NCBI GenBank assembly: GCA_015063985.1
Contig: SVTC01000007.1
Span: forward strand, 35,477-99,476
Length of the DNA: 64,000 bases
Direction of reading: 5' to 3'
From: Oscillospiraceae bacterium
GTDB lineage: Bacteria; Bacillota; Clostridia; Oscillospirales; SIG627
Made by a program: the position numbers and the translations under genes
Shown: positions 421 through 62,425 of the stretch, piece after piece
Numbering within the stretch: position 1 is the stretch's first letter
Layout of the letters: each line of letters starts with the position of its first letter
The notes under the pieces: generated by a model
Told to the model about the DNA's origin: nothing
Databases searched by the model: none
Seen by the model: only the letters and a program-made list of their open reading frames with translations

Positions 421-2600
421 ATACACAAAAGCCCGTCTTTTCCTTCAACGCCGAGGAGCTGATCCGACTCAGCTCGGATCTTATCTTTCCGACCATAAAG
501 CCCCATACCCACGCTATGCCCAAAGCCGATAACTCATTCCCCGATGCCGCCTTGTCCTGCAAGGTGGAGCGGGGATCTTTTGTCCTTGAGCTGACCGCGG
601 TATGCGATATGGTTACCAAAACCGAATCGGGATATTGTGCGGACTACGTTTCATCACCCGAAAATCCTCTCCACCGTCTAAACGCTCTTGTCTGCGCCGC
701 GATCCTTTGCCGTTCCCGCAAGCTTGATTCTGTCACGGTCAGAGAGGCAAGCTTTAAAAACAAGCTTTGGAGCTTTAAAAGCGAAGGCTTTTCCGCATCG
801 GCTCTTTCGGAGGCGCTGGAGCGCCGCATAGATATTCTCTGTAAGCTCATTGAAAAAACAAAGCTAAAAAGCAAAGCCCCCGTATTTCCCCATCCATCTC
901 TCCGCGAAGGTCAACGGGAGCTTATGGATGCCTGCTACGATACGATAAAGTCAAAAAAGAAGCTCTTCGTTTGCGCGCCCACGGGAATGGGCAAGACCCT
1001 TTCCTTCCTCTACCCCGCACTGAAGGCAGTGGAAAGATCAAGAGCAAAGCGAGTAATATTCGTTACCCCCAAGGGCTCTACTCAGGCTCAGGTGCAAAAA
1101 AGCGCCGAAAGCCTGTGCAAGGGTGTAGTATCTATGATACTGCCTTCAAGACAAAGCCTTTGCTACCGCTCTGCCCAACGCTGTGAATGCTGCAGCTCGG
1201 GAAAGCTCAGCGCCGCCCTGGAAATGCTCTTCGATAATTCCCGTATCACTCCCTCTCATATACTCTCCGCCGCCCGCGCCTTTTCCGTATGCCCCACCGC
1301 ACTGGCGCGTACCGCATCACGGCTTTGCGATCTTATTATCTGCGATTACAATTTTCTTTTTGACCCCAAGGCAAAGCTTGATTATTTTTGCGACAAGCAA
1401 AGCATTCTGCTTATAGATGAGGCTCACAATCTTCCTGACAGAGTCAGCGCCTGCCTTTCCTCATCCATCTCCCCCGAGGATATCAGTAAGCTTAAAGAGC
1501 TCTTCCCGCCCACCTCCCTTTCAGCGCCACTGACCGATGAGCTGTCCCGCCGCTTTGAAGTCCAAGCCCGAGCACTTGAAAACGGAAAGGAGAGCATATC
1601 CTCCCAAAGCGCCGACAAGGAAGCCGAGCTATGCAACAAGATATTTGCCGCCTTCTATACCCTTGACTTACTCTCACACCCCCAAAAGGCGGAGCTTCTG
1701 TACAGATTCAAGCATTTTTATAAAACCAACAACACCTTCAGCCAAGGCTACGTAAAGGTCATAACTCCCGACGGAGGCATAAGGCTCTGTCTTGCGGATC
1801 CCTCGGAGCATATCAGAAGCTGCTGCAGTCAATTTGGCAGCGCAGTGTTCTTCAGCGCCACTCTCATTCCCGAGGAATATTTCACTTTGGCTTTGGGCGC
1901 CGACCCCTGCGACGGCTTCATCCATGGCACATCCCCCTTTGACCCGGACTCTCTCGGTCTCTTCGCCTTTCCCTTGAATACCTCCCTTTCCTGCCGCGGA
2001 CAAAGCATGATAGCCCTTTGCAAGGTCATAAAGGCATCCACCTCCCACAGGGGAAGATACATAGCCTTTTTCCCCTCCTTCGAGTACCTATACAGCGCCA
2101 AGACCGCAATTTCATCCTTTTTAAAAAACCTTAAAGTGATCACCCAAGAGCAAAATATGTCCCCTCAAAGCAGAGCTCAATTCTTCACCGAGCTGAGCCA
2201 AGGCGATACAAACAGATCCGTCCTTGCTCTCTGCGTTCTGGGCGGACTCTTCTCCGAGGGCATTGAGCTTCCCGATGCATCACTTGACGGGGTCATAGTG
2301 GTAGGCAGTGGTATGATTCCCCCATCGCCCGAGCGAGAGGCGGTGTGCTTCTATTATAACGAAAACGATTTCGACGGCAGATCCTTTGCCTACACCCTCC
2401 CCGGCTTTAACAAGGTGCTCCAGGCGATAGGCAGAGTCATCCGCAAGGAATCGGATCGCGGAATAGCAGTGCTTTGCGACCGCCATTTCGCCGACGGCTC
2501 CTTTGATACCCTCTTCCCCGAGCACCTCCCCGAGCTTCAGGTCTGTGCAACACCTAACGAGCTTCTCGCACGTATTCGCAAATTCCACACTCCCATTTAA
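417..2600 (+). CDS. Rad3/XPD/DinG-family ATP-dependent DNA helicase with a non-helicase N-terminal region of about 170 aa
   Basis: Walker A motif VCAPTGMGKTL, DEAH box LLIDEAHNL, a Cys-rich insert (CYRSAQRCECCSSGK) where XPD-type Fe-S clusters sit, and C-terminal helicase motifs (GRVIRKESDRG). Confidence 0.8.
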   Translation: MNTQKPVFSFNAEELIRLSSDLIFPTIKPHTHAMPKADNSFPDAALSCKVERGSFVLELTAVCDMVTKTESGYCADYVSSPENPLHRLNALVCAAILCRSRKLDSVTVREASFKNKLWSFKSEGFSASALSEALERRIDILCKLIEKTKLKSKAPVFPHPSLREGQRELMDACYDTIKSKKKLFVCAPTGMGKTLSFLYPALKAVERSRAKRVIFVTPKGSTQAQVQKSAESLCKGVVSMILPSRQSLCYRSAQRCECCSSGKLSAALEMLFDNSRITPSHILSAARAFSVCPTALARTASRLCDLIICDYNFLFDPKAKLDYFCDKQSILLIDEAHNLPDRVSACLSSSISPEDISKLKELFPPTSLSAPLTDELSRRFEVQARALENGKESISSQSADKEAELCNKIFAAFYTLDLLSHPQKAELLYRFKHFYKTNNTFSQGYVKVITPDGGIRLCLADPSEHIRSCCSQFGSAVFFSATLIPEEYFTLALGADPCDGFIHGTSPFDPDSLGLFAFPLNTSLSCRGQSMIALCKVIKASTSHRGRYIAFFPSFEYLYSAKTAISSFLKNLKVITQEQNMSPQSRAQFFTELSQGDTNRSVLALCVLGGLFSEGIELPDASLDGVIVVGSGMIPPSPEREAVCFYYNENDFDGRSFAYTLPGFNKVLQAIGRVIRKESDRGIAVLCDRHFADGSFDTLFPEHLPELQVCATPNELLARIRKFHTPI

Positions 2601-2679: not shown

Positions 2680-4104
2680 ATGAATGAAAAAATCAAGGCC
2701 ATAATGGACCTTATCAAGACCGAAGGTATTGAAATGGTCGATTTCAAGATGGTCGACATCAACGGAGCCTTCCGCCACGTCACTGTTCCCGCACACAGCT
2801 TCAATGAAGAAATGATGACCGACGGTATCGGCTTTGACGCCTCCAACTACGGCTACGCAGTTGTTGAAAAGAGCGATATGGTATTCATTCCCGACCCCGA
2901 CACCGCTTTTATCGACCCCTTCTGCGATATCCCCACTCTGTCAATGAGCGGAAACGCAATGATAATCGACTATCCCGAAAACCGTCCCTTGGCTCAGTAT
3001 CCCAGAAATATCGTTGTTGCCGCAGAAAAATATATGCAGGATCAGGGCATAGCAGACGAGATCCTTATCCTCCCCGAGTTTGAATTCTATCTTTTCGATC
3101 AGGTAGGCTGGGAGGTAAAGCCCCATTCCATCGCAATGGATCTCGACGCCGAAGCCGCTTATTGGAACAGCGCAACAGACGGCAGCGGAAACGTGGTTCC
3201 CAAGCAGAAGAACTACCACATTGCCAAGCCCTTTGACACCTCCTACGAGATCAGAAGCGAAATGTGCCGCCTTATCGAGCAGGTGGGTATCCCCGTAAAA
3301 TATCATCATCCCGAGGTTGGCGCCGCAGGTCAGTTTGAGATCGAGCCCAAGCTTGGCAAGCTCTCCAAAATGGCAGACGGAACCATGATGATAAAGTACA
3401 TAATCAGAAATACCGCCGCAAAACACGGCAAGAGCGCAACCCTTATGCCCAAGCCCGTTATGGGCGAGGCAGGCAACGGTATGCACGTTCATATGCTTCT
3501 TATGAAGGACGGCCGGCCCGTGTTCAGCGATGACAACGGCTACGCTCACCTGAGCCGCGAAGCTCATTGGTTTATCGGCGGACTTTTGAAGCATATCAGT
3601 GCGCTCTGCGCCATCACCAATCCCAGCACCAACTCCTTCAAGCGTCTCGTTCCCGGCTTTGAGGCTCCCGTAACCGTGGGCTATGCCACAAGCAACCGCA
3701 GCGCGGTCATCCGTATCCCCGCATACGCAAAGCGTCCCGAGGAGCGCCGCTTCGAGCTGAGAAATCCCGATGCCACCTGCAACCCCTATTTCTGCTACGC
3801 CGCCATCCTTATGGCAGGTCTTGACGGAATCAAGAACAAGATCGATCCCAAGGAAAACGGCTGGGGCCCCTACGACTTTAACCTCTTCAACCTTCCCGAG
3901 GAGGAGAAAAAGAAGCTCAAGGGCTTGCCCACCTCCCTGGATGCCGCGTTGGATGCCCTCGAGGCAGATCACGACTTTCTCACCGAGGGCGGAGTATTCC
4001 CCCTGCACCTTATCGAGAAGTTCATTTCCACCAAGCGCGACGAGCTTCGCCAGATGGCAGCCATCCCCCATCCCGCAGAATTTGAAAGATACTACAACCT
4101 TTAA
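2680..4104 (+). CDS. glnA: glutamine synthetase, type I
   Basis: 474 aa with GS signatures NGMHVHMLL, SNRSAVIRIP and RFELRNPD. The RBS is AAGGAG. Confidence 0.95.
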   Translation: MNEKIKAIMDLIKTEGIEMVDFKMVDINGAFRHVTVPAHSFNEEMMTDGIGFDASNYGYAVVEKSDMVFIPDPDTAFIDPFCDIPTLSMSGNAMIIDYPENRPLAQYPRNIVVAAEKYMQDQGIADEILILPEFEFYLFDQVGWEVKPHSIAMDLDAEAAYWNSATDGSGNVVPKQKNYHIAKPFDTSYEIRSEMCRLIEQVGIPVKYHHPEVGAAGQFEIEPKLGKLSKMADGTMMIKYIIRNTAAKHGKSATLMPKPVMGEAGNGMHVHMLLMKDGRPVFSDDNGYAHLSREAHWFIGGLLKHISALCAITNPSTNSFKRLVPGFEAPVTVGYATSNRSAVIRIPAYAKRPEERRFELRNPDATCNPYFCYAAILMAGLDGIKNKIDPKENGWGPYDFNLFNLPEEEKKKLKGLPTSLDAALDALEADHDFLTEGGVFPLHLIEKFISTKRDELRQMAAIPHPAEFERYYNL

Positions 4105-9373: not shown

Positions 9374-9457
9374 AAAGGAAGACACGCCAAAGGCAACCGA
9401 TAACAGCCTCTTGAAATTATCGGCTGTCAGCGGTTGTCATATAGCATATCTTCCTTT
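9374..9457. repeat. AAAGGAAGA(C)/TCTTCCTTT inverted repeat enclosing a CCGATAA/TTATCGG hairpin; probable rpmF terminator
   Basis: AAAGGAAGAC at 9374-9383 and TCTTCCTTT at 9449-9457, with an inner stem at 9397-9403/9417-9423. The outer arms have the same sequence as those bounding the hairpin-ladder elements at 34.1 and 60.5 kb. Confidence 0.45.
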
Positions 9458-33125: not shown

Positions 33126-33980
33126 ATGTCCGGAAGTGCGCTTTGGGAAACACAATCTATCGACGAAAAGCTTATAAAGGTCGACTATATGAACACCCAC
33201 ATTACCCCCGATAAAACCAACAAGCTCCACTGTCATCCCTTTTTCGAGCTTATCATAATCGATCGCGGGGAGGTAAAATATACTAAAAATAACAGTATGA
33301 CCGAGATAAAAAACAAAGCCGTCGTGTTTAACAGGATATACGATATTCACAACCCCTTCGTCAGCTATTCGCCTTTGTATAAAAGAATAAAGATACAGTT
33401 CTCCCATAAGCTTCTGGAGAAGTATATAAAGCCGTCCGCGGAGTTAGAGCTTGCCCTGGGAGCATCATACATCAAAAGCCTTAACGACGTTGATTTTGAA
33501 AGGATCTTCTCCCTTTCAAAGAGCATTTTTCAACTGTGCGGCAACGGTGAAGAAGAGCTTGAAAAAACGAGAGTCTGCCTTTATCTTGCTACGCTTATCC
33601 TTAATTGCTACGATGCTGCTCCGCTGCCTGCTGACAGCAGGCAAAGCTACGTAAACGGCGTAAGAGAATATATTATCGCCAATCTTTCCCGCCGACTTAC
33701 CATAGAGGACATAGCCGGCACCTTTTTCGTGAGTAAAACAAAGCTGATTTGCGATTTTAAAAGGTATAGCAATCTGAGTGTTTTGCAGTTTATCACCGCC
33801 GAAAGGGTAAAAGCTGCCCAAAGGCTTCTTTTGAAGGGCTATTCCGTTAGCTCCACTGCCGAAAAATGCGGCTTCTCAAGCCCCAGCTATTTTATTAAGG
33901 TATTTTCCCAAACAATGGGAATCACCCCTCTTAAATACACCTCTCTTCGACTCGAAGGCTCCGACACAAACCGCTTCTGA
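33126..33980 (+). CDS. AraC-family transcriptional regulator
   Basis: N-terminal cupin-like domain and a C-terminal double HTH (GFSSPSYFIKVFSQTMGITP). Confidence 0.85.
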   Translation: MSGSALWETQSIDEKLIKVDYMNTHITPDKTNKLHCHPFFELIIIDRGEVKYTKNNSMTEIKNKAVVFNRIYDIHNPFVSYSPLYKRIKIQFSHKLLEKYIKPSAELELALGASYIKSLNDVDFERIFSLSKSIFQLCGNGEEELEKTRVCLYLATLILNCYDAAPLPADSRQSYVNGVREYIIANLSRRLTIEDIAGTFFVSKTKLICDFKRYSNLSVLQFITAERVKAAQRLLLKGYSVSSTAEKCGFSSPSYFIKVFSQTMGITPLKYTSLRLEGSDTNRF

Positions 33981-34029: not shown

Positions 34030-34106
34030 TTTACATAACATTGTTTACATTAGTATTATGTAAATCATTAAATTTACATAAGTTATAATATCTGTATTTA
34101 TGTAAA
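34030..34106. repeat. cluster of TTTACATAA / TTATGTAAA boxes
   Basis: TTTACATAA at 34030-38 and 34073-81, TTTACAT at 34044-50, and TTATGTAAA at 34056-64 and 34098-106. Confidence 0.8.
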
Positions 34107-34120
34107 CAATTTTCAAGAAT

Positions 34121-34506
34121 AAAGGAAGGCTTTTTAGCGTAGTGCCCTTAAGGACACTACGCGTCGATATAGATCCGCTTGCGCGGATCTTCGATATACG
34201 CTGACACGTTCGATATGATGTTTGCTACGCAAACACTCGATATGCTCACCGCGTGAGCGCGGATCTATATCATATCAAGCTTGAGTGTAGCGAAAGCATA
34301 TCGAATTTGCCGCAAGGCAAATATATCGAGCCGAGCGAAGCGACGGCATATCGACAAATAGCATCTGTGGACACAGATGCAGTGCTTGCAAAGAAAAGAG
34401 GACAGAGAGTGTAAAAACATTCTCTGTCCTCTTCCTGTCGGTGGGTGCTATTTCTATTGAATCTAAAACTATCCTTAAGAGTACGTCTCTTTAGAGTCTT
34501 CCTTTT
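34121..34506 (-). repeat. hairpin-ladder element, copy A (TIR-bounded; orientation given relative to copy B)
   Basis: AAAGGAAGGC (34121-30) pairs with GTCTTCCTTT (34496-505). Inside, TCGATAT occurs 4 times and then ATATCGA 3 times, interleaved with perfect hairpins without spare nucleotides. A terminator-like hairpin is at 34398-34431. Confidence 0.85.
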
Positions 34507-34562: not shown

Positions 34563-34734
34563 AACACCATCGAGCACTGTATTTGCGTGAACTATGTCGT
34601 CATTGAAGGTTTTTTGCCTACTTTTTTTCAAAGCTCACGTCCCTATCAGTACTAATATGACCTTCGAGCACTGTGTTTGTACTGACTTTACCGACATTGA
34701 AAGTTTTTTGCCTACTTTTTTTCAAAAAAGTAGG
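34563..34734 (-). repeat. stop-codon-abutting hairpin plus two tandem units of about 94 bp (locus A)
   Basis: The palindromic hairpin CCTAC T7 C A6 GTAGG (34711-34734) starts at the nucleotide after the TAA of the oxidoreductase gene. The unit core is GCAAAAAAC..TTCAATGTCG..AACACAGTGCTCGA. Confidence 0.85.
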
Positions 34735-35772
34735 TTATGCTTTGGGATATTTGATCTTAACGGGCATACCGGTCTTGGTGGACTCAACGGTAGCGGTGCA
34801 GACAGCCACGGTGCTTGCGCCCTCAAGACTGCTTACGGGGAGGGGAGTGTTGTTAACAAGGGCGTTGACAAAGGCATCGATTTCCGCGGTAATATTGTGG
34901 TTGTTGATCTCGATGGGTATCTCCTTGCCCTTGGTGAAGCTGCTTTTGCCGTTTTCCAGAGGACCGACGTCTTCAAAGAGCGTCATTGTGGGAGAGGTGT
35001 TGTCGCAGATTATGGTACCGTTGGTGCCGTAGAAAACACTTCTCATTGTGTAATCTCTCTTGCATCCGATGGAGGTGAACACCTTACCTGCAACGTTGTT
35101 GGGGAACTTGTAGATGGCAACTGCACAGTCGTCTGTGGGCCAGGTCGTGAGACACTTGTGGTTAGCAATGGCATATACCTCGCCGGGGTTGCCCGCGATC
35201 CATCTGAGAAGATCAACTGCGTGGCATCCGCCGCCGATAAAGCCGTGTCTTTCGGGTGTTACTCTCCAATCGTCCACACCTCTTGCCTTGGCATAGCTGT
35301 GAGCGTATTCGCTTTCAACAAAGAAAAGCTCGCCGATCTTGCCCTCCTCGATGAGCTTCTTTGCCTGCAAAAAGGCGGGGGTGCAACGGCATACCTGACC
35401 GATCATAAGTCTTCTGCCGGACTCCTTTTCGGCATCGATCATTCTCTGACACTGCTCCATATCAAGAGCCATAGGCTTTTCGCAAAGAACGTCCTTGCCG
35501 GCTCTGAGGAATGCTTCGGTCATTTCCAGATGGTACTGGTCGGGTGTAACGATAACCGCCGCATCAACCTTGGGATCGTTTACAAATTCTCTGTAATCGG
35601 TCACCGCCTTTTCAACGTCAGGGAAGCCCTCAAGCCTCTTTTTGAGAATGTCCTCGTGCTTGTCGCATATTCCGTAAAGCTTTGCGCCTTCCTTTGCAAC
35701 AACTCCGTCCATGTGACGTCTTGCCATATCACTGCATCCGATAACTACAATGTTTAAAACTTTATTTTCCAT
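34735..35772 (-). CDS. Gfo/Idh/MocA-family NAD(P)-dependent oxidoreductase
   Basis: N-terminal Rossmann motif (NIVVIGCSDMARRH) and the EKPM motif (CEKPMAL). 345 aa. Confidence 0.85.
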   Translation of the reverse strand: MENKVLNIVVIGCSDMARRHMDGVVAKEGAKLYGICDKHEDILKKRLEGFPDVEKAVTDYREFVNDPKVDAAVIVTPDQYHLEMTEAFLRAGKDVLCEKPMALDMEQCQRMIDAEKESGRRLMIGQVCRCTPAFLQAKKLIEEGKIGELFFVESEYAHSYAKARGVDDWRVTPERHGFIGGGCHAVDLLRWIAGNPGEVYAIANHKCLTTWPTDDCAVAIYKFPNNVAGKVFTSIGCKRDYTMRSVFYGTNGTIICDNTSPTMTLFEDVGPLENGKSSFTKGKEIPIEINNHNITAEIDAFVNALVNNTPLPVSSLEGASTVAVCTATVESTKTGMPVKIKYPKA

Positions 35773-36810: not shown

Positions 36811-37085
36811 TATGTAAACCAAAAGCTTTCGAGCACTGTGTTTGCATTGATGTGATCGACATTGAAAGTTTTTGCCTGCTTTTTTTCAAAACTCACGTCC
36901 CTATCAGCGCTAATATGACCTTCAAGCACTGTGTTTGCACTGACTTTACCGACGTTGAAGGTTTTTTGCCTGCTTTTTTCAAAACTTCCATTAAAGTTGG
37001 CACTGATATCGCCATCGAGCACTGTGTTTGTGCTGACTCTGTCGACATTGAAAGTTTTTTGCCTACTTTTTTTCAAAAAAGTAGG
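36811..37085 (-). repeat. stop-codon-abutting hairpin plus three 93-bp tandem units ending in GGTTTACATAA (locus C); open in frame with the upstream gene
   Basis: The hairpin at 37062-37085 starts right after TGA (37086-88). GCACTGTG recurs at 36833, 36926 and 37019, giving a 93-nt period. The minus-strand frame is open for 91 codons up to the TAA inside the TTTACATAA box. Confidence 0.85.
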
Positions 37086-38429
37086 TCAGAACAGCTTTTC
37101 GCAGAATTCCTCGATGAGACCCAGATCCCAAGCCAAACGGCTTGCAACATACTTGTCGCGGATATCCTTGGTTGCCTTGAAGGAATCCTTGAGGCAATCG
37201 GGACAGATACCGATCTCCTCAACCGCCTTGGGTGCACCGATAAGGTCCATAAGATCCTCAACGGTCTTAGCATCGGGGAGCTCTTCTGCCATGATCTTCT
37301 TGATCTCGTCCCAATTATCGATGATCTTTTCAAGACGTGCGGCGTGCTTTTCGAGATTGTATTTGCCGGCGCCTGCCTCTGCCTCGATCATAGTCTCTGC
37401 GGCAGTGCCCAGAAGCTTTCTCAGATCCTCGCTCCAAGCCTCGAAGGAGAAGCTCTTAACGTAGCTGAGAGCCTTTTCTCTGTCGGGAGTTGCCGCCTTA
37501 AGAAGATCGTATACCTTAAGGCTGAGAAGCGTACCTATGCCAACCTGAATACCGTGAAGATCCACGGGAGTTCCAAGCTCAAGACCTCTCATATCCCAAA
37601 CGTGGGAGAAGTAGTGCTCCATACCGGAAGCGGGACGGCTCATACCGGCGTAGTTCATACCGATGCCCGCAATGAGCATACCCTCCATAACACTCTTTAC
37701 GCTTTCGGGGTCGCGCTTGATAAGACCCGCAGCGCCGTCAACAACGCGCTTAAGTGCGGTACGTACAAGACCTGCAACGTTTTCGCAGTAGTACTCTCCG
37801 ATGAGAAGGCTTGCTATTCTCCATTCGCAAATGGAAATGTACTTTGCAAGCATATCGCCAACGCCGGCCTGGAGCATTTTCATGGGAGCATTGCAAAGAA
37901 TATCAAGATCGCCGATAACTACCTGAGGGCAGGTGGAATCAAGAGAGACCTTAAGGCCGTCTCTTGCCATAGAAGAGGTCGCAGATGCGTAACCGTCCAT
38001 ACTGGGTGCAGTTCCAACGATAAAATAAGGGTGACCCGTGATCTTGGAAAGGATCTTTCCCAGATCGTTGATAACACCGCCGCCAACGCCGACGATAAGA
38101 TCGCAGCTGTGGTCGTAGTGCATCACGGCACTGCCAACAGCCCACTCATCGGGCTCAAGATGCTCTTTTCTGAAGGCGTAACGGCTGTGGGGGATCCCCG
38201 CAGCGTCAAGCTCTGCCTCGCAAAGCTCTCCTGCCGCCTTGTAGGTGTTAGTGTCGCAAAGGATAAACACCTTCTTGCCGCCGTACTTTTTAACCAGCTC
38301 GGCAAGCTTTTTTACAGCACCCTTCTCAATGTATGCTTCCTTTACCATTGCAAAATGCTTTTTGCCGCAATCGCACAGTGCGCCGTCGTTGGCAAGAAGC
38401 TCCGCAACGGTTGCTTTTGTCATATCCAT
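37086..38429 (-). CDS. iron-containing alcohol dehydrogenase family protein (glycerol-1-phosphate dehydrogenase/AraM-like)
   Basis: Family-typical GGGVINDLGK and polyol-dehydrogenase His motifs. The start at 38429 (MDMTKA) has GGAGG 8 nt upstream. Confidence 0.7.
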   Translation of the reverse strand: MDMTKATVAELLANDGALCDCGKKHFAMVKEAYIEKGAVKKLAELVKKYGGKKVFILCDTNTYKAAGELCEAELDAAGIPHSRYAFRKEHLEPDEWAVGSAVMHYDHSCDLIVGVGGGVINDLGKILSKITGHPYFIVGTAPSMDGYASATSSMARDGLKVSLDSTCPQVVIGDLDILCNAPMKMLQAGVGDMLAKYISICEWRIASLLIGEYYCENVAGLVRTALKRVVDGAAGLIKRDPESVKSVMEGMLIAGIGMNYAGMSRPASGMEHYFSHVWDMRGLELGTPVDLHGIQVGIGTLLSLKVYDLLKAATPDREKALSYVKSFSFEAWSEDLRKLLGTAAETMIEAEAGAGKYNLEKHAARLEKIIDNWDEIKKIMAEELPDAKTVEDLMDLIGAPKAVEEIGICPDCLKDSFKATKDIRDKYVASRLAWDLGLIEEFCEKLF

Positions 38430-49840: not shown

Positions 49841-50018
49841 CACACCTTTTTGAAAAAAGGTGTGCCAAAAACTTTTATTGTCGATAAAGTCAGCATAAAC
49901 AAAGCAATCGATGGTTTTCTCGGCCCGAAACCATACTTTCCTTTTTGAAAAAAGGTGTGCCAAATACCTTTATTGTCGATAAAGTCAGTGCACACGGTAC
50001 TCTATTCATTTATTTACA
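49841..50018 (+). repeat. stop-codon-abutting hairpin plus two tandem units of about 95 bp (locus D), variant hairpin sequence
   Basis: CACACC T5 G A6 GGTGTG (49841-49864) starts right after TAA (49838-40). The conserved core is CCAAAAACTTTTATTGTCGATAAAGTCAG, and the array ends near TTTACA at 50013-18. Confidence 0.8.
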
Positions 50019-59564: not shown

Positions 59565-60260
59565 ATGTACAACTCAAAGCTCAAAGCCCTCACCTTCAGC
59601 TTTGATGACGGCGTCACTCAGGATCAACGTCTTATCAAGCTATTGGACAAATATCACCTGCGCTCCACCTTCAACATAAATTCCGCAAGGCTGGATCAGG
59701 CCAAGATCCTCCTCGTAGGCGACGTGACGGTCAGCCACTGCAAGCCCCGTCCCTGCGAGATCAAGGCGATCTACCAAAACCACGAGGTGGCAGGCCACAC
59801 CCTCAGCCACCCCTGTCTGACCACCCGCAGTGACGACGAAATAGTCCGCGAGGTGGAGCAGGACCGTCTTGCTCTCTCCCAACTCTGCCAATACGAGGTG
59901 GTAGGCTTTGCCTATCCCGGAGGCTCCCAATACGTGGACGACAGAGTCATAAGCGCCGTAAGGACCCGCACCGGTGTTAAATACGCACGCAACGCCTGCA
60001 CCTCCGGCAGCTTCGATCCGCCCACCGATCTTTTCAACGTGATCCCCACCGCCTCCTTTCTTGACGGCAATATTTTGGAGCTTGCAAAAGAGTTTATCGC
60101 CATCTCTCCCCATTCCCCCAAGCTATTCTTCATCTACGGACACGCCTACGAGCCCGACGGCTACTCCGACGGCTGGGAAAGAGTGGAAAAACTCTTCTCT
60201 CTCATCTCGCACAAGGATGACGTCTTCTACGGCACCAACAAAGAATGCCTACTTTTTTGA
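59565..60260 (+). CDS. polysaccharide deacetylase (CE4 / NodB-homology domain)
   Basis: The LTFSFDDG and GHTLSHP motifs. The last 13 nt, including the TGA, lie inside the repeat hairpin at 60248-60271. Confidence 0.8.
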   Translation: MYNSKLKALTFSFDDGVTQDQRLIKLLDKYHLRSTFNINSARLDQAKILLVGDVTVSHCKPRPCEIKAIYQNHEVAGHTLSHPCLTTRSDDEIVREVEQDRLALSQLCQYEVVGFAYPGGSQYVDDRVISAVRTRTGVKYARNACTSGSFDPPTDLFNVIPTASFLDGNILELAKEFIAISPHSPKLFFIYGHAYEPDGYSDGWERVEKLFSLISHKDDVFYGTNKECLLF

Positions 60261-60506
60261 AAAAAAGTAGGCAAAAAACTTTTATTGTCGATAGACTCAG
60301 CACGAACACAGTGCTCGATGCTTTGCTTTTCGGGAACAACCCTTTTTAAAAGCAGGCAAAAAGCTTTTATTGTCGATGGAGTCGGCACGAACACAGTTCT
60401 CGATGCTTTGCTTTTCGGGAACAACCCTTTTTAAAAACAGGCAAAAAACTTTTATTGTCGATAGAGTCGGCACGAACACAGTGCTCAATGCTTTAACTTT
60501 ACATAA
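60248..60506 (+). repeat. hairpin plus three 85-bp tandem units ending in TTTACATAA (locus B)
   Basis: CCTAC T6 G A7 GTAGG is at 60248-60271. GGCAAAAA recurs at 60270, 60355 and 60440, giving an 85-nt period. TTTACATAA is at 60498-60506. Confidence 0.85.
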
Positions 60507-60545: not shown

Positions 60546-60906
60546 AAAAGGAAGACCGACAAGAGGCACACTTCCTTACGGAGTGTGCCTCAATTTTCTT
60601 TTTATATAAAATTTGACACTTTCTGTTTGAAAGTGTCATAGTGGGTTACATACTTTGAAATATTACCTATCTCAAAGATAAAAATAATAAGTGATATTGT
60701 GAGACAGGTCTCACAGTGATATTTTTGATAAATCAAAAGTGATATTAAAACCTTGCGGTTTTAGTGATATTTTATTCGCCCCTAAACTCGCAAAGCGAAT
60801 AACACTCGGCTATAGCCGAATATAACTGCGAAGCAATACAACTCGCCTTTGGCGAATAAAACTGAGGCACACTTCCTTACGGAGTGTGCCTCAAGGTCTT
60901 CCTTTT
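60546..60906 (+). repeat. hairpin-ladder element, copy B (TIR-bounded)
   Basis: AAAAGGAAGACC (60546-57) pairs with GGTCTTCCTTTT (60895-906). An identical 31-nt hairpin unit occurs at 60563-93 and 60864-94. GTGATAT occurs 4 times and then ATAnnAC 4 times, interleaved with perfect hairpins. Confidence 0.85.
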
Positions 60907-60910
60907 GCTT

Positions 60911-62425
60911 TTAATAAATATTTATCGCGGATTCGTCCACCTTATCGAGAACAATGTCCACATCCTCGCGGCTTACCTTTTTTCCGTTGAGATAAAGCCC
61001 CTCTACAGTCACGCCGTCCATTCGGCTGGTGGGAATAAAGTTTTTCATCTTCACCTTGAGACATTTTGTTCCAAGCTTCTCAAGGATCTTCTCATCGCAA
61101 TAAACGAAAATATCCTTAAGCTTAATATCCGTCACTGACGCATAGCGCTCATCACCCAAGGTGATCTTACTCTTGGATTCCCCAAGATTAAGAAAAGCAT
61201 AGCTTTCGCGGAAGCGCTTATTCCTGATACTGAGAACACCGGCAACCTCCATCTCATCCTTATTCGAATACTTCCCATCATCGCTCTTCTGAAGCTGACA
61301 CCCGGTGTAGAAGCTTTCCAGCTCCAATCTGATATTTTCAAATCTGATATTCTTGACCCGAGCATAGTCACCGTTCTGAATATCGCAAGCGGTATTACCG
61401 CCTCTTAAAATATCGCAGTCGTAAAATACTATATCGTCGTACTCATCCGCCGATGTCTCCAGGCCTATCTCACAGGTCTTACCCCAATCGCACCAAAGCA
61501 CACAGCCCTCGATCCTTATCCTGCGATTATCGGTCCGGCAGTATCTGTCTATCCCCTTAACGGTTACGGTATCGTCAAAGGAATGGATAAAAGAACCCTT
61601 GATAAGCACGTCTTGGCAATTCACCACGTCTACACCGTCGGTATTATATCTCCACTGGCCGAATACGTTTATCCTATCCAGCAACACGTCTTTACAATGG
61701 AAAAGATTGATGCACCATATCGCAGAATTCATAAAGCCAACGCCCTCAACGCTGACATTACTGCAATCGTAAAGCTTAAAGTTGCCGTTTGCATACGGCT
61801 CATAGCAATGCTGAGAAAACCTTTCCTCACCGCTGTCATCAAATATTCCGTTTCCGAAAATGCGAATATTCTCGGCGTTTTCGGCATAAATGCATCCGTA
61901 TACCAATGCATCCTTATCCACGTACACGCTCTCGTTGGACTTCAGAGTGATCTTGCCGGGAAAATGCACTCCCCTTCCGAAATAATAGCTGACCTTCTCG
62001 GGCTCCTCGCAAACCACGGGCTTATTATTAAAGATGTATAAAAGGCCGTGATAATCGTCTATCTCCAGAACGTATGCGCCGTTTTCCTTCAAGGTGAACT
62101 TAAGCTTACCATCACGCTTCTCGGGTACTACCTTCTTGGAGTAAGGCTTTAGCATAACTCTGCCGTCAATACTCTTGGTCAAGGACTCTACCTCAAGCTC
62201 CACGTCCTCGTCGGAGACAAGATTTACGTAAGACACCTTACAGCTCTGCTCCACAGGCCTCTGAAAGCCCGGCCACCATCTGTTAAAGGGATAATCCGAT
62301 ATCCTGCAGGTATAAACGGGTATCCTTTCGCCACGTGCGTAAACTCTGTAATTCCCGGACTCCTCCACCTCAATGGGAAAAGCGGACAGCTTCCAATCGT
62401 GTTTAAATCGGGAATAAGAAAACAT
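60911..62425 (-). CDS. right-handed beta-helix glycoside hydrolase (GH28-like)
   Basis: The NTDGVD and SFDDTVTVKG motifs are characteristic of GH28/pectin-lyase-fold enzymes. 504 aa. Confidence 0.55.
   Translation of the reverse strand: MFSYSRFKHDWKLSAFPIEVEESGNYRVYARGERIPVYTCRISDYPFNRWWPGFQRPVEQSCKVSYVNLVSDEDVELEVESLTKSIDGRVMLKPYSKKVVPEKRDGKLKFTLKENGAYVLEIDDYHGLLYIFNNKPVVCEEPEKVSYYFGRGVHFPGKITLKSNESVYVDKDALVYGCIYAENAENIRIFGNGIFDDSGEERFSQHCYEPYANGNFKLYDCSNVSVEGVGFMNSAIWCINLFHCKDVLLDRINVFGQWRYNTDGVDVVNCQDVLIKGSFIHSFDDTVTVKGIDRYCRTDNRRIRIEGCVLWCDWGKTCEIGLETSADEYDDIVFYDCDILRGGNTACDIQNGDYARVKNIRFENIRLELESFYTGCQLQKSDDGKYSNKDEMEVAGVLSIRNKRFRESYAFLNLGESKSKITLGDERYASVTDIKLKDIFVYCDEKILEKLGTKCLKVKMKNFIPTSRMDGVTVEGLYLNGKKVSREDVDIVLDKVDESAINIY

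Follow-up and report, generated by a model that had tools for sequence, protein, structure and literature searches.

Element A, a hairpin ladder of 386 nt at positions 34121-34506 of the window (the whole 64-kb stretch of DNA that was analysed), and its sibling copy B, on the minus strand at 60546-60907, are very probably divergent, two-armed members of the Gut-1 family (RF01706) that fold as a single strand. They most likely act in this folded single-stranded form, and probably as RNA at the 3' ends of genes; for the whole statement, which joins family membership, the two-armed build and the putative 3'-end role, we estimate a probability of about 0.4. The full unit is closed, strand-symmetric and two-armed, measures about 240-390 nt, and is larger and more symmetric than the published Gut-1 model, which consists of three hairpins over 77 nt (Weinberg et al., 2010, Genome Biol 11:R31, PMC2864571). 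The description given there is a single sentence, with nothing beyond an occurrence in the human gut only. New here are the mirror-image arms, a covarying helix (P1), a first domain of fixed size (~105 nt), the apparent swapping of hairpins and domains, and the placement at gene ends and in phage modules.

All coordinates that the sequence-only reading had given for element A proved correct when checked by script, and every listed hairpin, the central palindrome, the mini-hairpin, the outer inverted repeat, the closing hairpin and the hairpin at 34398-34431 were located where they had been placed. Two descriptions needed amendment. H7 is a hairpin as proposed, with its details corrected to an 8-bp stem and the loop GGAC. 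The 34398-34431 hairpin had been described as terminator-like and followed by a U-run; it is present, but the T-run (TTTTCTTT) lies on the minus strand only, downstream of a stem that contains an A-C mismatch on that strand. On the plus strand the stem is an unbroken 17 bp, one G-U pair included, and the tail is TTCCTGTCGG. The parts of element A and its neighbours are as follows.

Ending at 33980, plus strand: AraC-type gene, upstream neighbour of A
34030-34059, plus strand: promoter-like site TTTACA-18-TATTAT upstream of A, a consensus match only, within the TTTACATAA motif cluster
34121-34130, plus strand: 5' strand of the outer stem, AAAGGAAGGC, paired with 34496-34505 (pair probability 0.945)
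34137-34162, plus strand: closing hairpin GCGTAGTG-cccttaagga-CACTACGC (pair probability 0.99)
34160-34278, plus strand: first (forward) domain, with TCGATAT linkers starting at 34164, 34191, 34210 and 34237 (family covariance model)
34171-34190, 34198-34209, 34220-34234 and 34244-34258, plus strand: hairpins H1, H2, H3 and H4 of the first domain
34275-34297, plus strand: centre, with the palindrome TCAAGCTTGA and the mini-hairpin GCGAAAGC (sequence check)
34298-34354, plus strand: second (reverse) domain, with ATATCGA linkers starting at 34298, 34323 and 34348 (rung probabilities 0.97-0.99)
34305-34322 and 34330-34347, plus strand: hairpins H5 (loop GCAA) and H6 (containing GCGAAGC) of the second domain
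34361-34380, plus strand: hairpin H7, GCATCTGT-ggac-ACAGATGC (sequence check and fold)
34398-34431, plus strand: long terminator-type hairpin (pair probability 1.0)
34496-34505, plus strand: 3' strand of the outer stem, GTCTTCCTTT (sequence check and fold)
Ending at 34735, minus strand: GFO/IDH/MocA gene, downstream neighbour of A, convergent

The hairpin ladder of A is real and far from chance. A scan of the 64-kb window for 7-mers with at least three forward and at least two reverse-complemented copies within 400 nt returned only A and its neighbouring TTTACAT cluster, and the same scan on 20 shuffles gave 0-1 hits. Folded as RNA, the 386 nt of A reach -163.6 kcal/mol compared with -103 ± 5 kcal/mol for shuffles (z = -11.1). 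The minus strand of A has z = -9.6, A as single-stranded DNA has z = -10.6, and copy B (60546-60907) has z = -13 to -14.

The Gut-1 family is recognised by at least three consecutive short hairpins with one repeated GUGA(A/U)AU-type linker. Element A carries four hairpins separated by TCGATAT, which has the core GATAT in common with Gut-1 linkers. At gathering thresholds Rfam gave no matches in the whole window, and Gut-1 surfaced only in a permissive scan, where RF01706 matched B with 34.7 bits on the minus strand and 30.8 bits on the plus strand, both below the 50-bit gathering threshold, and had no match to A even at E ≤ 10. A third copy, L042, from a Christensenellaceae MAG, reached 49.4 bits, also below this threshold. 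A family covariance model, R1, was built from 18 other members over the first domain and helix P1, with A and B left out. This model matched A(+) at 34160-34278 over its full length (27.3 bits, E = 0.001, filters off, 64 kb) and otherwise only B(-) in the window, again along the whole of the model, the next match having E = 0.75; all of these E-values are rough, as the calibration was short. The idea that the ladder is of a new kind was thereby overturned, since the pattern is that of a known family and the same ladders stand in its published seeds: the flanks of the 2010 seed sequences (e.g., BAAZ01000095 and BAAV01002358) already hold complete ladders, of which only one arm, with three hairpins, was modelled.

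Copy B and its neighbours comprise the following parts.

Ending at 60260, plus strand: deacetylase gene, downstream neighbour of B, convergent
60546-60907, minus strand: copy B, sibling element (Rfam Gut-1 matches, family-model match and folds)
60689-60775, plus strand: inverted array of B (RF01706, 30.8 bits)
60764-60866, minus strand: first domain of B (family model, 33.3 bits, E = 5e-5)
Ending at 60911, minus strand: GH28 gene, upstream neighbour of B

The build of B is that of A, but its second-arm linkers are degenerate (AATAnnACT, with 7-8 of 9 positions complementary). B is flanked by two identical hairpins (60563-60591 and 60866-60894) and by an outer inverted repeat of 12 bp, and B(-) is colinear with seeds such as BAAZ01000322, including the closing hairpin GAGGCRCACUCCGNAAGGAAGUGYGCCUC. 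An architecture common to both copies, with A(+) corresponding to B(-), had been proposed from the letters of the window and is borne out here; the covariance model matches exactly these strands. The outer inverted repeat of A (AAAGGAAGGC / GTCTTCCTTT, 9/10 complementary) also closes B and L042; the latter is a true ladder with variant linkers in mirrored order, and its linker, like that of B, is (A)GTGATAT. The closing hairpin of A stands where other family members have a terminator-like hairpin in front of the array, and hairpins with a TCCTTAAG-type loop, like that of A, are found in L500 and B. Across the family, the first domain is 103-108 nt long in 20 of 23 copies, with free stem sequences that differ in all hairpins and all copies. 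One-armed copies exist as well (hgutS7, BAAU01005691, L312 and L174), and the ladder is therefore not obligatory.

The arms are mirror images in their loops as well as in their linkers, which is new here. Across the family, GCTTCGC occurs in the 5' arm only (11:0) and GCGAAGC in the 3' arm only (0:11), and the purine fraction of the loops is 0.23 in the 5' arm versus 0.65 in the 3' arm; purine-rich loops and GCGAAGC are typical of the 3' arm family-wide. The heptamer GCGAAGC is best known as an exceptionally stable DNA mini-hairpin, a point against RNA as the working form.

Pairing of each TCGATAT with an ATATCGA into 7-bp rungs, as first proposed, is the thermodynamic ground state in A (F1:R3, F2:R2 and F3:R1, pair probability 0.97-0.99). 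The proposal does not extend to the family, in which the first linker pairs with the centre and not with the outermost reverse linker. Linker pairing is nevertheless upheld among members: in 17 of them, complementarity between forward and reverse linkers is 0.96 for cognate versus 0.85 for non-cognate pairs (0/5000 permutations). Part of this complementarity comes automatically, the second arm being built from the same module in inverted orientation. A shows the switch from GU to UC and from AC to GA in each of its seven linkers, while B in the same genome keeps GUGAUAU; some rungs are mismatched in the mixed-linker copy BAAZ01000130. The alternative helix P1 is formed family-wide between the centre and a strand made up of the first linker and the 5' arm of hairpin 1, and is 93% paired. 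In A, positions 34165-34178 are complementary to the centre strand 34259-34272, with a 13-nt perfect inverted match found by blastn. The covariation score of P1 is 0.436, compared with 0.162 for shuffles (0/500 reach the observed score) and 0.04-0.12 for slid controls, and its complementarity is broken in L412. Hairpin 1 is itself 97% paired across the family, with 5 pairs changed on both sides. Since P1 excludes hairpin 1, at least two folds exist, and the simple nested ladder is just one of them. The fixed number of modules, the fixed domain length and the two covarying alternative helices speak for a defined fold and against a free array.

The stems are 98% Watson-Crick, with 5 G-U and 6 A-C among 467 pairs. 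The sequence-only reading had taken the kept architecture and differing stems as the pattern expected for a structure under selection or for a templated generating mechanism. Pairing is indeed kept despite the change of stems, but without an excess of G-U pairs a selection on RNA structure is not proven over a constraint at the DNA level. Counting of G-U against A-C pairs as a pointer to the transcribed strand gave no signal and was rejected.

Such stems, unusual for a selected RNA, lend weight to a serious rival, which we regard as possible: the elements may be selfish palindromic DNA repeats with a REP/BIME-, BOX- or MITE-like lifestyle. Hairpin modules in single-stranded DNA would be copied, inserted or exchanged at the 7-mer, either by a trans-acting ssDNA enzyme (e.g., a HUH/Y1-type nuclease) or by template switching, the stems would be kept perfect by DNA-templated correction, and any RNA structure would be incidental. 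Whole hairpins or domains do appear to have been swapped between otherwise identical loci, which is new here. The copies L414 and L436 have identical flanks and a replaced first-domain interior, with breakpoints at the first and centre linkers. B and L273 are 93% identical, with a complete exchange of one hairpin and of the closing hairpin, and L273 lies in a context unrelated to that of B, directly beside a phage head-tail adaptor gene that is truncated. L174 breaks off precisely at its centre, next to a kinase gene truncated at the 5' end. Besides this module-exact exchange bounded by linkers, the DNA-repeat explanation is favoured by the multiple copies (two within 64 kb, tandem 240-nt arrays in seed sequences and the tandem L418), by a single-stranded DNA fold as significant as the RNA fold, by the strand-symmetric architecture, by the terminal inverted repeat of 10-12 bp common to A, B and L042, and by the lack of a constant gene neighbour across copies. 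It is at odds with several other observations. A, B and L042 have no target-site duplication or flanking direct repeat, and no transposase adjoins any copy among the neighbours examined. Moreover, the module number and domain length are fixed and two alternative helices covary, the orientation to the upstream gene is constant, and the loops have a strand polarity that a pure palindrome constraint does not require. An empty-site search for A was made via the flanking oxidoreductase. The contigs with an exact match to the A locus are all identical to each other, the contig of a 97% relative ends 145 nt past the oxidoreductase gene, before the element, and 71% homologues are not syntenic.

The genomic context suggests a role at the ends of genes. 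Wherever the upstream neighbour is known (A, B, L042, and the stop-codon or tRNA annotation of seeds), it is a co-directional ORF or tRNA, and the downstream neighbours are mostly convergent genes; L042 is arranged as A and B are. Most copies are chromosomal and lie between ordinary metabolic genes. The one-armed arrays of hgutS7 and BAAU01005691 are followed by a terminator, and those of L312 stand in sense orientation in a phage head operon, between portal, Prp and the next genes. Canonical members carry GCACUUGC-N4-GCAAGUGC-U6 ahead of the first linker and leave no room for a promoter. With this strong terminator-like hairpin and U-run right before the first linker in most members, little transcription may enter the array. 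The features of an intrinsic terminator are found only in parts of the elements and not in the ladder itself: in the canonical hairpin with U6 just described, in B at 60563-60591(+), with AATTTTCTTT behind the hairpin, and in A at 34431-34398(-), where TTTTCTTT follows.

The module of the element is a 7-nt linker with the core GA(A/U)AU, followed by a short, near-perfect Watson-Crick hairpin of free sequence. Four such modules make up the first domain, whose size is fixed at about 105 nt, and three to four more, arrayed in inverse orientation, form the second arm; a hairpin and the outer stem close the whole. As a single strand, the array folds up as a row of tandem hairpins. In A, the complementary linkers of both arms zip into the 7-bp rungs and yield a compact multi-junction body, while across the family P1 can replace hairpin 1 and thereby give two alternative folds. 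In the reading that we prefer, the working form would probably be RNA in the orientation A(+)/B(-), supplied by transcription that runs through from the co-directional upstream gene or tRNA or extends its 3' end, or else, possibly, by a weak promoter of its own at 34030-34059. Because the arms are mirror images, a transcript from either convergent gene would meet the same series of structures. The element may thus be a strand-symmetric module of 3' ends, serving to cap, stabilise or insulate transcripts where units converge, and its copies may have spread and diversified by recombining with one another at the conserved linkers.

The mirrored loop polarity is also consistent with two independent convergent Gut-1 units, in which each arm would be an RNA of its own strand, read toward the centre, and the rungs a by-product of the back-to-back arrangement. 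In B, RF01706 matches one arm on each strand, the U-G pair at the base of the hairpins is found only on the own strand of each arm (18/18), one-armed copies exist, and in B the same terminator-type hairpin precedes each arm. We consider this explanation unlikely, as the P1 partner and the fixed 105-nt domain are confined to one arm, R1 matches A and B on a single strand, and the centre is without a terminator, so that a transcript of one arm would in any case continue into the other. The cognate covariation of linkers, including the seven-linker switch of A, is likewise hard to explain without pairing or homogenisation in cis.

Rather improbably, the Gut-1 element would represent a class of two-state structured RNA, large (about 240-390 nt) and previously unrecognised, in gut Clostridia and their phages. 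One state would be a cloverleaf-like first domain closed by a P1 of 12-15 bp, and the other a ladder of tandem hairpins, whose mirror arms are zipped into stacked four-way junctions by 7-bp rungs of identical sequence. As the rungs are identical within an element, they could pair in a shifted register or between molecules, which might give rise to multimeric assemblies or to a mechanical or regulatory switch. In a remoter variant, the hairpin-plus-handle modules would be decoys or substrates of a structure-specific RNA-binding nuclease.

A very unlikely explanation is a protein-binding site in double-stranded DNA, of the phage packaging, recombination or origin type, with 7-bp sites direct and then inverted around a central cut or crossover. 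It would account for the 4 + 3 heptamers around the central palindrome of A, for phage copies just upstream of terS/TerL (L500 and L150) or inside head modules (L312 and L273), for the iteron-like repeats that adjoin the L150 copy, for rearrangement breakpoints at the centre (L174 versus L214), and for several copies beside partial tRNA genes at prophage junctions. However, duplex binding gives no role to the compensatory, sequence-free hairpins that separate the sites, the linker spacing of 19-27 bp is not helically phased, most copies are chromosomal, and those next to tRNA genes are explained as host sequence downstream of a tRNA terminator. Other candidates were rejected: a CRISPR-like array (CRISPR arrays have repeats of 24-48 nt and unique spacers, whereas the repeat here is 7 nt, the 'spacers' are palindromic and no cas genes are nearby), an integron attC array (attC sites have R''/R' boxes and flank cassettes, whereas each hairpin here is flanked by a 7-mer of the same orientation, not an inverse pair, and no intI is nearby), a retron or tRNA-like gene (no features or associated genes, and ARAGORN returned nothing), a coding region (the ORFs over the element are short and not conserved) and a simple long inverted repeat (no hairpin is the same in both arms).

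BLASTN of the A locus against phage and plasmid collections gave no match. A scan of the genome collection for the outer-repeat frame AAAGGAAGRC-N337-367-GYCTTCCTTT returned 92 loci, nearly all chance occurrences across phyla, and only L042 was a true ladder. The same frame in the metagenome collection, which does not include the source contigs, returned 37 loci without a ladder, one of which (L117) has the frame only. In viral contigs, tandem repeats drowned out the matches to simple three-linker patterns, and a hairpin filter was needed; the many matches to GTGATAT..ATATCAC in phages of 55-60 kb are arrays of a palindromic operator-like site (GTGATATCAC) and not Gut-1.

Since its description in 2010, Gut-1 has remained an orphan motif, with human-gut reads as its only known source and a model of three hairpins. 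The element is abundant in uncultured Clostridia, including the Christensenellaceae MAG, and in their phages, and it exchanges hairpin modules, as far as comparison of copies indicates; the Rfam model misses divergent members such as A. Experimental handles are gained in the form of defined strands, two testable helices, defined hosts and phage contexts. A true RNA device or a substrate of an ssDNA enzyme would be a new tool-like system, and a REP-like repeat would be the first family of its type to be defined in these gut anaerobes, of use in assembly, in strain typing and in understanding 3'-end biology.

Several known systems resemble the element in part. The pac site of phage P1 has 4 + 3 hexamer repeats around a cleavage region and works as duplex DNA with methylatable TGATCA sites; it is not known to have hairpin spacers. 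The 4 + 3 arrangement around a centre is shared with Gut-1, and some Gut-1 copies adjoin terminase genes; this is a resemblance only. The Gut-1 element has hairpin spacers and mostly chromosomal copies. BOX modules are conserved sequences of 45-60 nt, and MITEs have target-site duplications. Pneumococcal BOX elements and other modular intergenic repeats or MITEs (Correia and RUP) are, like Gut-1, modular, with end modules and a variable middle, strong in secondary structure, intergenic, and present in unrelated contexts. Unlike Gut-1, BOX elements and MITEs are not known to have a 7-nt linker with sequence-free hairpins or two covarying alternative helices. REP/BIME elements of Enterobacteria have sequence-conserved stems and a GTAG-type tetranucleotide and are tied to RAYT transposases. 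They also consist of many extragenic palindromic units, direct and inverted, typically at gene 3' ends or between convergent genes, and form hairpins in transcripts and in single-stranded DNA. The Gut-1 element differs in its stems, which are free in sequence, in having only the 7-nt linkers conserved and in its fixed number of modules, and no Y1 transposase was found among the neighbours examined. The closest system is the Gut-1 RNA motif itself, which has consecutive short hairpins and a repeated linker (model consensus GUGAAAU), often with a terminator-type hairpin ahead of them, and comes from metagenomes of gut anaerobes, as here; B and L042 match the full length of its model (30.8-49.4 bits), and A differs in its linker, UCGAUAU. 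Beyond the described motif are, in structure, the second inverted arm, the outer stem, helix P1, the fixed 105-nt domain and the mirror symmetry, and, in distribution, the placement in Clostridia, the Christensenellaceae MAG and the phage copies.

The element at 34121-34506(+), A, carries the 7-nt linker TCGATAT four times and then its reverse complement ATATCGA three times, with perfect hairpins adjoining the linkers, and a script check found the sequence-only reading of this segment correct throughout. The centre of A consists of the palindrome plus GCGAAAGC, and A also has a closing hairpin, a long terminator-type hairpin, and a 10-nt outer inverted repeat that is complementary at 9 of 10 positions. 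A scan of the whole window for any 7-mer occurring at least three times forward and at least twice in reverse within 400 nt returned only the A locus and the adjacent TTTACAT cluster, against 0-1 matches in shuffled sequences; the ladder pattern of A is thus beyond chance. Fold z-scores for the 386 nt of A are -11.1 (plus-strand RNA), -9.6 (minus strand), and -10.6 (single-stranded DNA). In its ground state A adopts the ladder, and the proposed 7-bp rungs between forward and reverse linkers form with probabilities of 0.97-0.99. The sibling copy B (60546-60907(-)) shares this build, as had been noticed from the sequence, and folds with z = -13 to -14, and the reverse linkers of its second arm are degenerate.

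The window gave no match to Rfam at curated thresholds. In a permissive Rfam scan, both arms of B matched RF01706 (“Gut-1 RNA”), an orphan hairpin-array motif, on opposite strands with 34.7 and 30.8 bits, covering the full 77-nt model. Searching with the outer inverted repeat revealed a third ladder, L042, in a Christensenellaceae MAG; it scored 49.4 bits against a threshold of 50. A itself did not match RF01706 because its linker is UCGAUAU, and we therefore trained our own covariance model for the first domain on 18 further members, leaving out A and B. With filters off, this family model gave exactly two significant matches in the 64 kb, both full-length, and the next-best match had E = 0.75.

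Features of the two ladders and of L042
34160-34278(+), first-domain match of A, 27.3 bits, E = 1e-3
60764-60866(-), first-domain match of B, 33.3 bits, E = 5e-5
34165-34178 with 34259-34272 (+), alternative helix P1 in A, as an inverted match
34121-34130 / 34496-34505, outer stem of A
60546-60557 / 60896-60907, outer stem of B
L042 1543-1552 / 1920-1929, outer stem of the third ladder

A is therefore a divergent member of the Gut-1 family, and its plus orientation equals B(-) and the published Gut-1 sense strand. A lies below the curated Rfam threshold, yet it agrees with the independent family model and has every architectural feature. Rather than the categorically new element first suspected, A is in kind a Gut-1 element, real and unusual. 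Gut-1 was first reported by Weinberg et al. (PMC2864571), with a published model of the first three hairpins only (SS_cons; PMC2864571). The flanks in the published Stockholm file hold complete ladders, including BAAZ01000095 (GUUAUAU, GCGAUAU, and two GUGAUAU, then four AUAUCAC) and BAAV01002358 (four GUGAAAU, then four AUUUCAC), and the file also has tandem 240-nt units, often placed directly after tRNA genes.

The first domain, which begins at the first linker, contains four hairpins, and ends with the centre segment, measures 103-108 nt in 20 of 23 copies, despite its sequence-free stems. Complementarity between the centre segment and the first linker together with the 5' arm of hairpin 1 defines helix P1, which is 93% paired, with both-sided changes in 6 of 13 pairs (alignment A3). 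Its covariation score is 0.436, compared with 0.162 for shuffles (0 of 500 reach 0.436) and 0.04-0.12 for slid partners, and two covarying pairs lie in the linker part and are therefore independent of hairpin 1. Hairpin 1 is 97% paired and covaries as well as P1 (0.453). As the two helices use a common strand, the family keeps two mutually exclusive folds. The minimum-energy folds of BAAZ01000840 and BAAZ01025322 contain P1; in A its pair probability is 0.0, and enforcing it costs 9 kcal/mol.

The linker pairing covaries in additional copies, in line with the ladder originally proposed: across 17 elements, nested pairing of forward linkers 2-4 was 0.96 with their own reverse linkers and 0.85 with those of other elements, a difference reached in 0 of 5000 permutations. 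The divergent first linker of S1, S5, B, and L042 finds its best partner in the centre linker, and the remaining forward linkers of these elements in the reverse linkers. Variant linkers of L042 (GUUAUAU/AUAUAAC) are innermost in both arms. In A, the GU-to-UC / AC-to-GA change is present in every one of the seven linkers, while B in the same genome retains GUGAUAU. In the 5' arm, loops are rich in pyrimidines (purine fraction 0.23, TTC 14 times), and in the 3' arm in purines (0.65); between the two arms, GCTTCGC is confined to the 5' one (11 occurrences), and GCGAAGC shows the opposite distribution. This mirrored polarity indicates that the second arm is an inverted array of one oriented module, beyond the complementary linkers. 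The stems (456 Watson-Crick, 5 G-U, and 6 A-C pairs) have no strand signal, so they do not reveal which strand is transcribed. One-armed copies include hgutS7 and BAAU01005691, in which a terminator follows the array, as well as L312 and L174.

The source organism is an uncultured member of the Clostridia. Contigs with the A locus came from JGI or Logan metagenomes only and were all identical; among the matches listed at 65-70% identity, the named homologues of the flanking oxidoreductase belong to Clostridia or Ruminococcaceae MAGs. A and B each lie between convergent genes. Pattern scans followed by a hairpin filter identified true arrays at 16 viral-contig loci, several of which adjoin integrase arm-like repeats and partial tRNA genes. 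Such tRNA-adjacent copies are host sequence directly downstream of the tRNA at a prophage junction, and others sit in genuine phage modules.

Gene neighbors of A, B, and phage copies
A: AraC-type regulator (+) ending at 33980; GFO/IDH/MocA oxidoreductase (-) ending at 34735
B: polysaccharide deacetylase (+) ending at 60260; GH28 hydrolase (-) ending at 60911
L500: copy upstream of terS/TerL
L150: copy 80 nt upstream of TerL, beside iteron-like repeats
L312: two one-armed arrays in sense orientation, between portal, Prp-like peptidase, and the next gene
L273: copy after a truncated head-tail adaptor gene

At L150 5230-5400, two tandem-repeat sets (GGTAACTTGCC and TATCTGC, four copies each) adjoin the full ladder. 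A reverse-transcriptase (RVT_1) gene at L404 1711-3228 lies about 900 nt from a ladder on a viral contig, a single case, with no association with RVT_1 seen beyond this locus. In a family of 50-60-kb phage contigs (L297 1771-1838, L356, L280, L321, and about 20 more loci from sample 3300045988), the palindrome (G)TGATATCA(C) occurs six to eight times in a promoter region between divergent genes, an arrangement resembling an array of operators; the half-site of this palindrome is identical to the Gut-1 linker GTGATAT.

Comparison of copies revealed exchange of whole modules. B and the L273 element are 93% identical in unrelated contexts, with the hairpin TTTTGAT..ATCAAAA replaced wholesale by TTTGCC..GGCAAA between unchanged linkers and the closing hairpin likewise exchanged whole. 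The L273 adaptor ORF (1569-1814, minus strand; 81 aa) matches positions 40-117 of a 201-position profile, and its last codons are homologous to non-coding B sequence (60668-60690); judging from these sequences, a B-like element appears to have truncated the gene and furnished its end. L414 and L436 represent one locus: their flanks agree at 100% identity for more than 300 nt, and the first-domain interior is wholly different, with breakpoints at the first and centre linkers. Ordinary recombination between copies can explain this exchange, since paralogous loci have flanking hairpins in common, and a dedicated mechanism is possible. In L412, hairpin 1 of one type is combined with the centre of another, which breaks P1. 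The L174 element ends exactly at the centre: L174 (9792-9900) and L214 (minus strand, 3667-3900) have in common a partial tRNA-Asn, a terminator hairpin, and the first domain, and diverge exactly after hairpin 4, where L174 passes into the 3' portion of a gene for an FGGY-type kinase, which places a rearrangement junction at the element centre.

Other repeats accompany the ladders. A separate tandem family, with units roughly 85-95 nt long that are 85-95% identical to one another, adjoins both. The final unit closes with the hairpin GCCTACTTTTTT-TCA-AAAAAGTAGG; at three unrelated genes (ends 34735, 37086, and 60260) this hairpin either adjoins or includes the stop codon, and accordingly the repeat may supply or follow gene ends. 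The 9-mer TTTACATAA / TTATGTAAA is over-represented (29 matches with at most one mismatch, 18.7 expected), forms inverted-pair clusters beside the ladders and 90-nt repeats, and could be an operator or promoter motif; TTATGTAAA is also similar to the XerD arm of dif sites in Firmicutes.

Repeats in the window
34567-34735, 36828-37086, 60261-60494, 49847-49895: 85-95-nt family (approximate unit length)
34030-34106 (5 copies), 34519, 36810, 55744/55770, 60498/60523: 9-mer

One strand of the outer stem, AAAGGAAG, is Shine-Dalgarno-like, and the other, CTTCCTTT, is like the 16S rRNA 3' end. The window has four exact occurrences of the 10-mer AAAGGAAGAC, all of them at structured elements bearing the outer stem. 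A small element at 9374-9457 is framed by the same outer inverted repeat as A and B (AAAGGAAGAC ... ATCTTCCTTT), with another hairpin, GGCAACCGATAACAGCC / GGCTGTCAGCGGTTGTC, inside; this small element was not detected by the family covariance model. On the metagenome contig OJKP01000515.1 (L117 3957-4330), the outer frame AAAGGAAGAC, a terminator, TTTACATG, and the end GTCTTCCTTT surround a long hairpin of approximately 38-nt tandem repeats with no ladder.

The Gut-1 element folds as a single strand with two covarying alternative helices and a fixed-size first domain. It is mirror-symmetric, keeps a constant orientation to the upstream gene or tRNA, and lies mainly between convergent genes. 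The working strand is probably RNA in the A(+)/B(-) sense, given that upstream genes are co-directional and that one-armed arrays either lie in sense within a phage operon or have a terminator behind them. The same reading is favoured by the terminator hairpin of A, whose 17-bp stem is made complete by a G-U pair in the plus-strand form alone, and by a site at 34030-59 that resembles a promoter. In the two-armed form, transcription from either convergent gene would meet an identical succession of structures, which may then collapse to a compact ladder as the outer stem closes. Capping, stabilising, or insulating 3' ends is a plausible candidate role.

Several points count against the RNA reading: a strong terminator ahead of the array in most members, no promoter space in canonical copies, stems without G-U bias, GCGAAGC, which has the character of a stable DNA mini-hairpin, and clear evidence for mobility and module exchange. 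A selfish DNA repeat of the REP/BIME or BOX kind is therefore a strong rival, one that we consider possible. Two independent convergent units are less likely than such a repeat and rather improbable, and a duplex protein-binding site, such as a packaging site, is very unlikely.

Gut-1 was mentioned only in PMC2864571 in the literature searched, relative to which the two-armed closed architecture, P1 and the two-state fold, mirror symmetry, the domain-length constraint, module exchange, the variant linker of A, and the host and phage assignments are new. In location and copy number the Gut-1 element resembles REP/BIME and BOX repeats, from which its conserved linkers and free stems set it apart.
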